Source: Escherichia coli (GTDB lineage: Bacteria; Pseudomonadota; Gammaproteobacteria; Enterobacterales; Enterobacteriaceae). From it: DNA of 64,000 nt. A program made the position numbers and the translations under genes. Position 1 is the stretch's first letter, and each line of letters begins with the position of its first letter. Of the stretch, positions 60,448 to 64,000 are shown one piece after another. The notes under the pieces were generated by a model. The model ran no database searches, was not told where the DNA came from, and was given only the letters and a program-made list of their open reading frames with translations. Location: NCBI RefSeq assembly GCF_009931435.1, contig NZ_CP043414.1; one strand, given 5' to 3'.

Positions 60448-61566
60448 ATGAAATACGATCTCATCATTATTGGCAGCGGTTCCGTAGGCGCTGCCGCCGG
60501 GTATTATGCAACCCGTGCCGGTTTAAACGTGCTAATGACCGACGCCCATATGCCACCGCATCAACACGGCAGCCACCACGGCGATACGCGATTAATTCGC
60601 CATGCTTATGGTGAAGGCGAAAAGTATGTCCCGCTGGTCCTCCGCGCGCAAACGCTGTGGGATGAACTCTCCCGCCACAACGAAGAAGATCCCATTTTTG
60701 TACGCTCGGGTGTCATTAACCTTGGCCCGGCTGATTCCGCATTTCTCGCCAACGTCGCCCACAGCGCTGAACAGTGGCAACTCAACGTTGAAAAGCTCGA
60801 TGCGCAAGGGATTATGGCACGCTGGCCAGAAATACGCGTCCCGGACAACTACATCGGCTTATTTGAGACTGATTCCGGCTTTTTACGCAGCGAACTGGCG
60901 ATTAAAACCTGGATCCAACTGGCGAAGGAAGCGGGTTGTGCGCAGTTGTTCAACTGCCCGGTCACCGCAATTCGTCATGACGATGATGGCGTAATTATTG
61001 AAACGGCTGACGGTGAGTATCAGGCGAAAAAAGCGATCGTCTGCGCGGGAACATGGGTAAAAGATCTGCTCCCGGAACTGCCTGTCCAGCCCGTACGCAA
61101 AGTATTTGCCTGGTATCAGGCCGATGGTCGCTATAGCGTGAAGAATAAATTCCCGGCGTTTACCGGTGAACTGCCCAATGGCGATCAATATTATGGTTTT
61201 CCGGCAGAAAACGACGCGTTGAAGATTGGCAAACATAACGGAGGCCAGGTTATCCATTCAGCGGATGAACGTGTTCCGTTTGCGGAAGTCGTCAGCGATG
61301 GCTCGGAAGCCTTCCCGTTCTTGCGCAATGTGTTGCCGGGTATCGGTTGCTGCCTGTACGGCGCTGCCTGCACCTATGATAATTCGCCTGACGAAGATTT
61401 TATTATCGATACTCTACCCGGCCACGATAATACACTGCTCATTACCGGCCTGAGCGGGCACGGTTTTAAATTTGCGTCAGTTTTAGGGGAAATAGCTGCC
61501 GATTTTGCGCAAGACAAAAAAAGCGATTTTGATTTGACGCCATTCAGGCTTTCCCGCTTCCAATAA
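60448..61566 (+). CDS. solA: N-methyl-L-tryptophan oxidase
   Basis: 372-aa [24 protein letters not shown] with FAD-binding GxGxxG motif. Confidence 0.93.
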
Positions 61567-61586
61567 TCATCATTACGGCCTCCAGA

Positions 61587-61727
61587 ATGAGGCCGTTTTT
61601 ACAGGAGTATTTAATGCGTCGGCTGTTGCACTATCTCATCAATAATATTCGCGAGCATCTGATGCTTTATCTTTTTCTCTGGGGACTGTTGGCAATTATG
61701 GACCTGATCTACGTGTTTTATTTTTAG
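61587..61727 (+). CDS. yceO: Small hydrophobic protein YceO (46 aa)
   Basis: Hand translation [46 protein letters not shown]; an internal ATG at 61614 has a good SD (aggag) and would give 37 aa. Under 60 aa, so absent from the ORF track. Confidence 0.6.
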
Positions 61728-61988
61728 TTTTTCCGCACTGACATAAACTGACAAATATTTAATCTCCCTTTCATTTAGCGTGAAAAATTGAATGAGATTC
61801 TTCCTACCTCTACAGCACTCACCAGACCTTCCAGATGCTGAACCCACTAAACTTATGAAGATTCTTTCATTATTAATTCAAAATTATTGAAATAAAAATA
61901 AATATCATTCAATTTGTTATTTTTGTGTTGCAATTCATTCTCCGACACGCCATTTTCTTTCTCTCGCAAATTCGTTTTGGATGCACTT

Positions 61989-62555
61989 ATGTCATTCACA
62001 AATACCCCTGAACGCTATGGTGTTATATCTGCGGCCTTCCATTGGCTAAGCGCAATTATTGTCTATGGCATGTTTGCTTTAGGTCTGTGGATGGTCACGC
62101 TCAGTTATTACGATGGCTGGTACCACAAAGCACCCGAATTGCATAAAAGCATCGGCATTTTGTTAATGATGGGGCTGGTTATTCGCGTTCTTTGGCGTGT
62201 CATATCTCCACCGCCGGGTCCGCTGCAAAGTTATTCGCCCATGACTCGTGTTGGCGCAAAGGCTGGACATCTTGCATTGTACCTATTGCTCTTTGCCATC
62301 GGCATCAGCGGCTATCTGATCTCCACTGCCGATGGTAAACCGATCAGCGTTTTTGGCTGGTTTGACGTCCCCGCGACCCTTGCCGATGCAGGCGCACAGG
62401 CTGACTTTGCCGGTGCCCTGCATTTTTGGCTCGCGTGGAGCGTCGTAGTACTGTCCGTTATGCACGGATTTATGGCCCTGAAGCATCATTTCATCGATAA
62501 GGACGACACTCTGAAGCGCATGCTGGGAAAGTCGTCATCTGACTATGGAGTATAA
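61989..62555 (+). CDS. yceJ: Cytochrome b561-family membrane protein YceJ
   Basis: Start at internal ATG (MSFTNTPERYGVISAAFHWLSAIIVYGMF) gives 188 aa with conserved His residues in TM helices. Confidence 0.88.
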   Translation: MSFTNTPERYGVISAAFHWLSAIIVYGMFALGLWMVTLSYYDGWYHKAPELHKSIGILLMMGLVIRVLWRVISPPPGPLQSYSPMTRVGAKAGHLALYLLLFAIGISGYLISTADGKPISVFGWFDVPATLADAGAQADFAGALHFWLAWSVVVLSVMHGFMALKHHFIDKDDTLKRMLGKSSSDYGV

Positions 62556-62558
62556 AAA

Positions 62559-63134
62559 ATGAAAAAAAGCCTGCTTGGTTTAACCTTCGCTTCCTTGATG
62601 TTCTCTGCGGGTTCAGCGGTTGCCGCCGATTACAAAATTGACAAAGAAGGTCAGCACGCCTTTGTTAACTTCCGCATCCAGCATCTTGGCTATAGCTGGT
62701 TATATGGCACCTTTAAAGATTTCGACGGTACTTTTACCTTTGATGAAAAAAATCCCGCTGCTGATAAAGTGAATGTGACAATTAACACCACCAGCGTCGA
62801 TACTAATCACGCCGAACGCGATAAACATCTTCGCAGTGCAGATTTCCTCAATACCGCAAAATATCCACAGGCAACATTCACCTCCACCAGCGTGAAGAAA
62901 GACGGTGACGAACTGGATATTACCGGCGATCTGACGCTGAACGGGGTCACCAAACCCGTCACGCTGGAAGCGAAATTAATTGGTCAGGGCGACGACCCGT
63001 GGGGCGGTAAACGTGCAGGCTTTGAGGCCGAAGGCAAAATTAAGCTCAAAGACTTCAATATCAAGACAGATTTAGGTCCAGCTTCTCAGGAAGTGGACCT
63101 GATTATTTCAGTGGAAGGCGTACAGCAGAAGTAA
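62559..63134 (+). CDS. yceI: Periplasmic YceI-family (polyisoprenoid-binding) protein
   Basis: 191-aa ORF with signal peptide [22 protein letters not shown]; starts 4 nt after the yceJ stop. Confidence 0.9.
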
Positions 63135-63146
63135 GCGTGAAATGTT

Positions 63147-63167
63147 GCCGGATGACACGCATCCGGC
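63147..63167. terminator. Hairpin in the yceI/yceA convergent gap, candidate terminator
   Basis: Inverted repeat gccggatg-acacg-catccggc followed by an AT-rich stretch. Confidence 0.4.
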
Positions 63168-63175
63168 AATGATAT

Positions 63176-64000
63176 TTATTCTGTTGGATCAGGAATGCCC
63201 AGTGTTGTATTCAGACGTCCACGAGACTTATTAAAGATCTTATTGCCATTTTCACGTCCTGCCCGACGGCGTCGCTGTTCTTCTGGCGGTAACGCGCTTT
63301 CTTCGCAGCAAATCTCACTGCAACAACCTTTGTATTTTTCTGCACATACTGGACACTGAATAAACAGCAGGTGGCAGCCATCATTTTTACAGTTGGTATG
63401 GCTGTCGCACGGCGCACCGCACTGGTGGCAATGCGCGATAATCTCATCAGATATACGTTCGCCCATCCGCTCGTCAAACACAAAATTTTTGCCAATAAAA
63501 CGCACCGGTAAGCCCTGCTCGCGCGCCTTACGGGCGTATTCAATAATTCCGCCTTCGATATGCCAGACTTTATTGAATCCGTTATGTTTCATCCAGGCAC
63601 TGGCCTTTTCACAACGAATGCCGCCGGTGCAGTACATAACGATTTTTTTATCTTTATGTTCCTGCATCATCTCGACTGCTTTTGGCAGCTGCTCACGGAA
63701 GGTATCTGCCGGAATTTCCAGCGCGTTTTCAAAGTGCCCCACTTCATACTCATAATGATTACGCATGTCGATAAACAGAGCATCGGGATCGTCAAGCATG
63801 GCGTTCACTTCTGCCGCTTGCAGATACTCACCAACATTGCTGGCATCAAAGTGAGGATCGTCAATACCGTCGGCTACGATGCGATCGCGCACCTTCATGC
63901 GCAGTACCCAGAAGGATTTCCCGTCATCATCCAACGCGATGTTCAGGCGTAAGCCATCTAAAGCCGGGTCGAAGCCGTATAGCTGTGCGCGAAATGTTTC
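63176..64000 (-). CDS. trhO: tRNA uridine(34) hydroxylase TrhO / YceA (rhodanese-domain protein), C-terminal about 275 aa; N-terminus outside window
   Basis: Minus-strand frame is open to the window edge (...[33 protein letters not shown]...); rhodanese active site [12 protein letters not shown] and Cys-rich C-terminus. Confidence 0.85.

Follow-up and report, generated by a model that had tools for sequence, protein, structure and literature searches.

Conserved neighbourhood of the cytochrome b561 gene yceJ and the lipocalin gene yceI in Escherichia coli, and independent gain and loss of the small gene yceO

The pairing of a cytochrome b561 with a YceI-family lipocalin has been published as the LcoA/BcnA system, for which a role in defence against lipid peroxidation was proposed (Naguib et al. 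2022, PMC9113575). The Escherichia synteny and fused genes in Alphaproteobacteria were already described in that work. In Burkholderia, lipid peroxidation was raised in both lcoA and bcnA mutants, and co-transcription and induction by oxidants or antibiotics were shown in this genus only (PMC9113575). Crystal structures of YceI-family proteins hold a polyisoprenoid or ubiquinone-8-type ligand (PMC9113575, introduction). Genes of the yceI type also occur without an adjacent cytochrome in Klebsiella, Acinetobacter and Neisseria (PMC9113575), which means that the lipocalin can function by itself. The literature searched yielded no experiment on what YceJ and YceI do in E. coli. The original prediction, which called the function of the pair poorly defined, thus stands with respect to E. 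coli experiments, but not in the light of the published LcoA/BcnA model.

The window analysed here is a 64-kb stretch of E. coli DNA (64,000 nucleotides, contig NZ_CP043414.1). The order solA-yceO-yceJ-yceI, with trhO convergent on the minus strand (stop at 63176), is the standard annotated arrangement of the E. coli chromosome and matches the RefSeq annotation (solA, YceO family protein, yceJ, yceI, trhO). Of 5,426 complete E. coli genomes, 5,422 contain at least 80% of this locus. All reading frames were found where they had been predicted, and their names (yceO, yceJ and yceI) were borne out by the open reading frames and profile matches. All three genes are already known, and both the detection of YceO and the cytochrome b561/YceI pairing have been published. 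An Rfam scan of positions 61300-63400 at E ≤ 1 returned only a spurious eukaryotic lncRNA fragment and no known RNA element. As an overall explanation, we consider with good confidence that the locus holds two independent units, a yceJ-yceI operon and a separate yceO. The flanking features are as follows.

60448 to 61566, plus strand: solA (N-methyl-L-tryptophan oxidase), the upstream neighbour; reading frame of 372 aa with the stop TAA at 61564-61566, matching solA as annotated in RefSeq.
63143 to 63171, plus strand: terminator-like hairpin with a 12-pair stem, located where yceI and trhO converge (terminator scan).

The two genes of the pair have the following coordinates.

61989 to 62555, plus strand: yceJ, a four-helix cytochrome b561-family membrane protein of 188 aa (PF01292).
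62559 to 63134, plus strand: yceI, a periplasmic YceI-family lipocalin of 191 aa, with a signal peptide at residues 1-22 (62559-62624).

YceJ matched the Pfam prokaryotic cytochrome b561 profile PF01292 over residues 9-180 (104.3 bits, cutoff 30.1). The listed reading frame starting at TTG 61914 (213 aa) is over-extended, and homologues align from ATG 61989. The protein has four hydrophobic segments, and the AlphaFold model places helices at residues 12-36, 43-72, 84-114 and 135-168. Five histidines (H18, H52, H145, H159 and H166) were invariant in 60 homologues, and the first four of these align with histidines of CybB, which we take to be the CybB haem ligands. YceJ has the same four-helix fold as E. 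coli CybB, a superoxide:ubiquinone oxidoreductase (PDB 5OC0; TM-score 0.89, sequence match E = 3e-13, 27% identity in the structural alignment). Its score against the CybB equivalog NF008566 (NCBIfam) was only 60 bits, below the cutoff of 170, which makes it a paralogue of CybB rather than CybB itself. From profile matches and the model, YceJ is predicted to be an inner-membrane cytochrome b561 with four helices and two haems.

YceI scored 167.7 bits against PF04264 (cutoff 23.7) and 344.8 bits against the NCBIfam equivalog NF002994 (cutoff 232), and is 100% identical to PDB 1Y0G, to which its predicted fold aligned with a TM-score of 0.96. Its N terminus has the features of a signal peptide (MKK, a hydrophobic core and a predicted cleavage site AVA|AD), and the resolved chain of 1Y0G has 169 residues, that is, 191 minus 22. 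YceI is accordingly read as a protein exported by a predicted cleavable signal peptide and, by its identity to 1Y0G and its modelled fold, as a periplasmic eight-stranded beta-barrel lipocalin.

In a locus scan with an alignment of 15 sequences as the query, yceI followed yceJ directly, in the same orientation, in 79 of the 80 yceJ loci from Enterobacterales and Pseudomonas. The sole exception was cut by a contig end; hence, the arrangement was found in 79 of 79 informative loci. Among the top 150 YceJ representatives, 4 were proteins in which a cytochrome b561 is fused to YceI, and over 115 other fusions of this kind were found; the linker between the two domains is hydrophobic and signal-peptide-like. 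On an E. albertii contig, yceJ and yceI were lost together, with yceO retained. The co-occurrence check proposed with the original prediction thus came out in its favour, with the informative loci, the fusions and a 4-nt overlap of the two genes in Salmonella all showing yceJ and yceI as co-conserved neighbours. The pair is also presented as one unit in a table of the E. coli Cpx regulon (PMC2731931, table entry). Very probably, yceJ and yceI form one functional unit. An AlphaFold model of a virtual fusion of YceJ and preYceI gave good domains (pLDDT 89) but a pTM of only 0.66, a result that speaks neither for nor against a fixed interface.

The junction of the two genes reads TAA-AAA-ATG, which confirms the predicted spacing of 3 nt. 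A ribosome-binding site for yceI lies inside the upstream gene.

62547 to 62550, plus strand: yceI Shine-Dalgarno sequence GGAG, within the last yceJ codons and 8 nt before the yceI ATG (read from the sequence).

From this spacing, translational coupling had been proposed. In its strict form, yceI would depend on ribosomes terminating at the yceJ stop codon, and the YceJ:YceI ratio would be fixed. The 3-nt gap in the window, gaps of 1-3 nt throughout Escherichia, Citrobacter and Enterobacter, and the Salmonella overlap are what such coupling would predict. However, the gap ranges from -17 to +74 nt across genera, with Serratia, Yersinia, Photorhabdus and Pseudomonas at 13-74 nt. A well-spaced GGAG stands before yceI in almost every one of the 79 loci. 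Structure-mediated coupling was also rejected, as the region around the yceI start folded no better than shuffled sequences (z = 0.14). Moreover, the AUG-AAA-AAA context of yceI by itself boosts initiation, and its first 10 codons drive efficient translation of a reporter (PMC10710512). Strict coupling is therefore unlikely. What is left of the proposal is the near-abutting stop and start; coupling is possible but not needed, because yceI has its own GGAG and an unstructured start and the gap is lineage-specific. In the preferred reading, translation of yceI in the window would be initiated through its own GGAG and its A-rich start, and the 3-nt gap would have arisen because the C terminus of yceJ was extended across this GGAG site in this lineage. 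The adjacency of the two genes would then serve joint transcription and, in some lineages, fusion.

Three conserved elements were identified in the region upstream of yceJ.

61739 to 61753, plus strand: tandem direct repeat TGACA-N5-TGACA, conserved, about 250 nt upstream of yceJ; candidate regulator site or -35 element.
61877 to 61891, plus strand: palindrome TTCAA-N5-TTGAA, candidate operator in the yceJ upstream region; a single match in the window, with 0.10 expected.
61928 to 61956, plus strand: promoter-like block (TTGCAA, 17 nt, CATTTT), putative core promoter, 33 nt before the yceJ ATG.

The TGACA repeat occurs once in the window, with 0.07 matches expected, and in 661 kb of related loci 29 of its 31 matches fell 197-339 nt ahead of yceJ. 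It goes with yceJ and not with yceO in Serratia, Pantoea and Rahnella. Among repeats of the Pho-box, CpxR, OmpR and ArcA types, none fitted it in both half-site and spacing, and no regulator was therefore assigned. The TCAA and TTGA columns of the palindrome were conserved across 13-16 genera, and in alignments reaching from E. coli as far as Serratia and Pantoea, a TTG(C/A)xx, 17-18 nt, xATxxT arrangement was preserved. These promoter-like blocks were recognized by conservation, not by consensus strength; a sigma-70 consensus scan returned no plus-strand promoter upstream of yceO or yceJ. The length of the yceO-yceJ spacer is also conserved, and a structured RNA leader was considered for it and rejected, with 0 pairs predicted by RNAalifold across 16 genera.

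Upstream of these elements lies yceO, for which two lengths had been predicted.

61614 to 61727, plus strand: yceO, conserved 37-aa form (DUF2770), an N-terminal part followed by one hydrophobic helix (DUF2770 profile, PGAP, conservation).
61603 to 61607, plus strand: yceO Shine-Dalgarno sequence AGGAG, 6 nt before ATG 61614.
61575 to 61600, plus strand: solA intrinsic-terminator-like hairpin formed by ACGGCCTC, the loop CAGAAT and GAGGCCGT, followed by a T-run (fold -13.8 to -14.5 kcal/mol).

The reading frame ends with TAG at 61725-61727 and contains two in-frame ATGs, giving 46 aa from position 61587 or 37 aa from position 61614. The ambiguity is real, since the K-12 reference annotates 46 aa (141 nt) and PGAP 37 aa. 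The Pfam DUF2770 profile, 36 positions long, matched the 46-aa frame with 79.1 bits (cutoff 25) over residues 10-45. Loci with 37-38 codons were found in 22 Enterobacteriaceae and 4 Serratia cases, plus Salmonella. Because the length of the 37-codon frame was kept and dN/dS was about 0.07-0.36 across genera, the frame is not a chance pattern; by these measures of conservation, yceO is identified as a real gene under purifying selection. The 37-aa form reached a maximum Kyte-Doolittle hydrophobicity of 2.15 (19-residue window) from residue 16. A word-indexed protein search had suggested a restriction of yceO to Escherichia, which proved to be a sensitivity artefact when loci were inspected directly: the gene is present in Citrobacter, Salmonella, Enterobacter, Cedecea, Atlantibacter and Serratia.

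YceO was detected by SPA tagging and top-down MS, which already supplies the peptide evidence that the original prediction had proposed to seek, and its chromosomal level was estimated to be at least 10,000-fold below that from an induced plasmid (PMC12529367). When the 46-aa frame was expressed from a plasmid, its N-terminal 11-residue peptide was recovered (PMC12529367), so the longer protein can be made if it is translated. This peptide, the K-12 annotation and an upstream ATG whose presence and frame are conserved in both E. coli and E. albertii would all agree with a native 46-aa YceO. The upstream ATG, however, lies within the loop and 3' arm of the solA hairpin and has no Shine-Dalgarno site, whereas the ACAGGAG before the second ATG was invariant in 8 Escherichia sequences. 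Furthermore, E. marmotae and relatives carry a 1-nt insertion that shifts the upstream ATG out of frame, in-frame stops precede the 37-aa start in Citrobacter and Enterobacter, and the Pfam model and PGAP both begin at the second Met. A native 46-aa protein is thus improbable, and the conservation pattern points with considerable confidence to ATG 61614 as the native start; the start in the K-12 reference is probably nine codons too far upstream. In one paper's table, YceO is entered as an 'acid stress small protein' (PMC12997748, table entry), and yceO is not mentioned in the Weaver preprint.

Across Escherichia species, the stem of the solA hairpin was invariant and its loop variable. Citrobacter, Enterobacter and Cedecea have a hairpin with a T-run in the corresponding position, but its stem differs in sequence. 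As the yceO start comes directly after the solA terminator, yceO is probably expressed at a very low level, and read-through of this terminator would be the likely route of its transcription.

A regulatory effect on larger membrane proteins is known for many small ones. Given this, and a distance of 207-319 nt between yceO and the downstream yceJ in 22 Enterobacteriaceae loci, YceO might be a small third subunit of the YceJ/YceI system, or its regulator. More than 50 loci, however, carry yceJ-yceI without any yceO-like reading frame, and in Serratia yceO lies 1.6-2.4 kb from the pair. Its retention in E. albertii despite the deletion of the pair, and an upstream motif that goes with yceJ and not with yceO, also argue against this role, which is highly improbable. 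yceO was gained and lost independently of yceJ-yceI and is not part of the pair.

In the working model judged most likely, taken by homology from LcoA/BcnA of Burkholderia, YceJ would pass electrons between the membrane quinone pool and a quinone head-group carried by YceI. This would allow YceI to quench peroxyl radicals derived from lipids, or to handle isoprenoid quinones in some other way, in the envelope. That such a quinone-redox antioxidant mechanism holds in E. coli is a tentative reading by analogy, which we place somewhat short of an even chance, and the redox link between the two Burkholderia proteins is itself a proposal. YceI might instead act mainly as a carrier that takes polyisoprenoids or quinones through the periplasm or out of it, or as a sequesterer of hydrophobic antibiotics, with YceJ as a loader or an incidental neighbour and no redox cycling. 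The octaprenyl-type ligands in published family structures, the sequestration of antibiotics by BcnA and PA0423 (PDB titles; PMC9113575, introduction) and the species with a lipocalin but no neighbouring cytochrome (PMC9113575) speak for a carrier. On the other hand, the invariant histidines at CybB-aligned positions of the linked cytochrome argue that electron transfer matters, and the widespread covalent fusion to a redox protein and the peroxidation phenotype shared by the lcoA and bcnA mutants (PMC9113575) point the same way. The carrier reading therefore appears somewhat unlikely. A more elaborate proposal extends the quinone-redox mechanism: YceI would be a diffusible periplasmic quinol carrier recharged by YceJ at the inner membrane, expression would be set by a regulator at TGACA-N5-TGACA, and yceO would be expressed only from solA read-through transcripts. 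As a joint claim this is rather unlikely; if true, YceI would serve E. coli as a soluble quinone-based electron shuttle for its periplasm and its outer membrane.

The discovery value of the locus is small, as practically all E. coli genomes have its genes annotated, production of YceO has been demonstrated and the cytochrome/lipocalin linkage has been published with a model. The additions made here are the 37-aa form of yceO as the conserved one, the independent gain and loss of this gene, and the tandem TGACA motif upstream of yceJ. The conserved motifs provide a handle on yceJ-yceI regulation, and the quinone redox cycle proposed for the periplasm could be tested conveniently on the E. coli pair.

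Compared with described systems, YceO resembles the small single-helix membrane proteins of E. coli (the Hemm/Storz set, which includes CydX, MgtS and AcrZ) in having fewer than 50 aa and one hydrophobic helix and in its verification through epitope tagging and top-down MS; unlike them, it has no known partner protein or activity. YceI belongs with the solved lipocalins 1Y0G, 7BWL (PA0423), 1WUB (TT1927b) and 3HPE (HP1286), the window protein being the one in 1Y0G. The LcoA-BcnA(-BcnB) locus of Burkholderia cenocepacia has two lipocalin genes, whereas E. coli has one, and E. coli YceI is nearer in sequence to BcnB (5IXG; phmmer E = 5e-19, 32% identity) than to BcnA (5IXH; 8e-9, 23%), the Burkholderia lipocalin that has been studied. 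In both loci, the cytochrome b561 gene is immediately upstream of the lipocalin gene on the same strand.

The final 4 kb of the window carries dinI, bssS, solA, a small ORF, a 188-aa ORF, a 191-aa ORF and trhO, in the same order as in the K-12 reference. The ORFs of the original prediction, a 46-aa or 37-aa yceO followed by yceJ and yceI, were correct, and their Pfam matches were all well over the cutoff. The features are as follows.

60448-61566: solA
ATG at 61587 (46 aa) or ATG at 61614 (37 aa): small ORF, yceO, matching DUF2770 (Pfam)
61989-62555: 188-aa ORF, yceJ (cytochrome b), matching PF01292, prokaryotic cytochrome b561 (Pfam)
62559-63134: 191-aa ORF, yceI, matching PF04264 (Pfam)
minus strand, convergent with yceI: trhO

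By megablast, the region 61400-63300 was present in 5,424 of 5,426 complete E. coli genomes, with coverage of at least 80% in 5,422, and annotation of the matched genomes gives solA, YceO family protein, yceJ, yceI and trhO. The solA-yceO-yceJ-yceI locus is an ordinary one, annotated and studied before, and most of the checks suggested with the original prediction are already in the literature. The minor additions made here concern the 37-aa yceO start, yceO as a gene independent of yceJI, the short yceJ-yceI gap with its lineage-specific origin, and conserved motifs upstream of yceJ. Because just one of the 5,424 matching genomes reached at least 99% identity over this region (95-99% in 5,413), the lineage of the window is somewhat uncommon among E. 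coli at this locus. Additionally, a 12-pair hairpin (63143-63171) between the convergent yceI and trhO is probably their shared bidirectional terminator.

Five lines of evidence favour a native YceO of 37 rather than 46 amino acids. The 36-position DUF2770 profile starts at residue 10 of the 46-aa form, and in other genomes PGAP gives yceO 37 aa, whereas 46 aa are annotated in K-12; the additional codons are 61587-61613 in the window and 1119421-1119447 in K-12 (NC_000913.3). The upstream ATG at 61587 lacks a Shine-Dalgarno sequence and lies within the loop and 3' arm of the solA terminator, a GC-rich hairpin of 8 bp (61575-61600) followed by a T-run; an invariant AGGAG precedes the ATG at 61614 with 6-nt spacing. 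A single nucleotide inserted between both ATGs shifts the upstream one out of frame in E. marmotae and in three further Escherichia contigs, and in Citrobacter and Enterobacter in-frame stops occur upstream of the conserved Met. Because these comparative data favour 37 aa, the K-12 reference annotation probably begins nine codons too early. An N-terminal peptide of the 46-aa form has been reported, found only with a plasmid bearing the 46-aa ORF (PMC12529367), and therefore leaves the native start unsettled.

The 37-codon ORF, whose product has a single hydrophobic helix after a short basic N-terminal stretch, is constant in length in 20 species, and comparison with the window gives a dN/dS of 0.07-0.36 (between genera, synonymous sites are saturated); therefore, yceO is a real coding gene. 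Experimental evidence for the protein exists: chromosomal YceO-SPA was detectable on immunoblot, and YceO was also found by top-down MS. The estimate for its chromosomal level was 10,000-fold or more under the arabinose-induced plasmid level (PMC12529367). In most genera, the solA stop and the yceO ribosome-binding site are separated by a hairpin with a T-run whose stem sequence differs, and no promoter-like site was found upstream of yceO. We infer that yceO is expressed via read-through of the solA terminator or from an unrecognised promoter.

A word-indexed protein search returned no YceO homologues outside Escherichia/Shigella; those of other genera were found by direct inspection of related loci, which placed yceO in 22 Enterobacteriaceae loci, 46-109 nt past solA and 207-319 nt ahead of yceJ, and also in Salmonella. 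In four Serratia loci, yceO lies 1.6-2.4 kb from yceJ, and more than 50 loci carry yceJI without yceO. Moreover, one E. albertii contig (L003, 3115-3327) shows a clean deletion of ~1.26 kb relative to about 61910-63170 of the window, which removed the yceJ core promoter, yceJ, yceI and the yceI terminator and retained yceO and the distal upstream motifs. Thus, yceO stands outside the yceJ-yceI unit.

Neither an Rfam match nor a conserved RNA structure was found in the AT-rich spacer (261 bp) ahead of yceJ. The following conserved DNA elements lie in it.

61739-61753, plus strand: tandem direct repeat TGACA-N5-TGACA (TGACATAAACTGACA), conserved from E. coli to Serratia, Pantoea, Mixta and Rahnella
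61877-61891, plus strand: perfect palindrome TTCAA-N5-TTGAA (TTCAAAATTATTGAA), a conserved DNA block upstream of yceJ
61928-61956, plus strand: promoter-like TTGCAA-17 nt-CATTTT, with the TTG and xATxxT positions kept across genera

The direct repeat occurs once in the window, and of the 31 copies present in related loci totalling 661 kb, 29 lie 197-339 nt upstream of yceJ. It tracks yceJ rather than yceO, being kept where yceO is missing or far off. Because a TAnnnT hexamer follows the second TGACA by 16-17 nt in many species, the repeat could act as a -35 element or as a response-regulator site. A published Cpx-regulon table includes yceJ and yceI with modest fold changes (PMC2731931).

A YceJ-alignment scan with one genome per species found 80 loci, in Enterobacterales and in Pseudomonas or Stutzerimonas. 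As expected from the proposed co-occurrence, yceI lay directly 3' of yceJ on the same strand in 79; the remaining locus stops 296 nt past yceJ and is therefore uninformative. Cytochrome b561-YceI fusions are common: they numbered 4 among the best 150 YceJ representatives, and a search seeded with one fusion found more than 115 others, chiefly in alphaproteobacterial MAGs. Their linkers are hydrophobic and signal-peptide-like, which fits a cytoplasmic cytochrome C-terminus and a periplasmic lipocalin domain. Synteny of lcoA-bcnA, including Escherichia, and the fusions were already published by Naguib et al. 2022 (PMC9113575), and our pairing and fusion results reproduce that work.

The predicted 3-nt separation of yceJ and yceI is right (junction TAA-AAA-ATG), but the translational coupling deduced from it is weakly founded. 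The short gap speaks for coupling; across loci, however, the distance from yceJ stop to yceI start ranges from -17 to +74 nt: Salmonella has a 4-nt overlap, Escherichia, Citrobacter and Enterobacter have a gap of 1-3 nt, and the distance is mostly 13-33 nt elsewhere. In the short-gap clade, the yceJ C-terminus is extended over the yceI GGAG (window 62541-62561), whereas in Cedecea and Serratia the yceJ TAA precedes the GGAG, which sits in the spacer; the short gap is lineage-specific in origin. Furthermore, a GGAG of its own lies 8 nt before the yceI start, shuffled versions of the 96-nt junction fold equally well (z = 0.14), and in a published reporter carrying yceI codons 1-10 from Salmonella, the AUG-AAA-AAA context by itself promoted efficient translation (PMC10710512). 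Coupling may contribute somewhat in E. coli but is neither needed nor conserved. The A-run at the junction also differs among E. coli strains (1-nt gap in L009, 4560-4571, against 3 nt in the window). In an Arsenophonus endosymbiont (L081, 4585-5222), yceJ is intact and yceI is split into two ORFs beside a long T-run soon after its start, likely a frameshift pseudogene in a reduced genome.

YceJ has four long helices, and its invariant H18, H52, H145, H159 and H166 align with His residues of CybB. Its fold matches the CybB structure 5OC0 with a TM-score of 0.89, and the NCBIfam score (60 bits, cutoff 170) distinguishes it from CybB. YceI is an NCBIfam equivalog (345 bits, cutoff 232) with a 22-residue signal peptide and is 100% identical to the barrel structure PDB 1Y0G. 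AlphaFold modelling of a virtual YceJ+preYceI fusion, based on an alignment of 111 natural fusions, gave a pLDDT of 89 and a pTM of only 0.66, and so speaks neither for nor against docking of the two proteins.

In the Burkholderia model, the cytochrome reduces the lipocalin-borne quinone and the lipocalin then quenches envelope lipid peroxyl radicals; YceI-type lipocalins without an adjoining cytochrome also exist (PMC9113575). E. coli YceI is 32% identical to Burkholderia BcnB (5IXG) and 23% to BcnA (5IXH), the functionally studied lipocalin; because YceI is nearer BcnB, simple orthology-based transfer of function is uncertain. With these caveats, the Burkholderia model is the best available one and, carried to E. 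coli by homology, would have YceJ reduce quinone on YceI, and the quinone-loaded YceI would quench lipid peroxyl radicals in the envelope.
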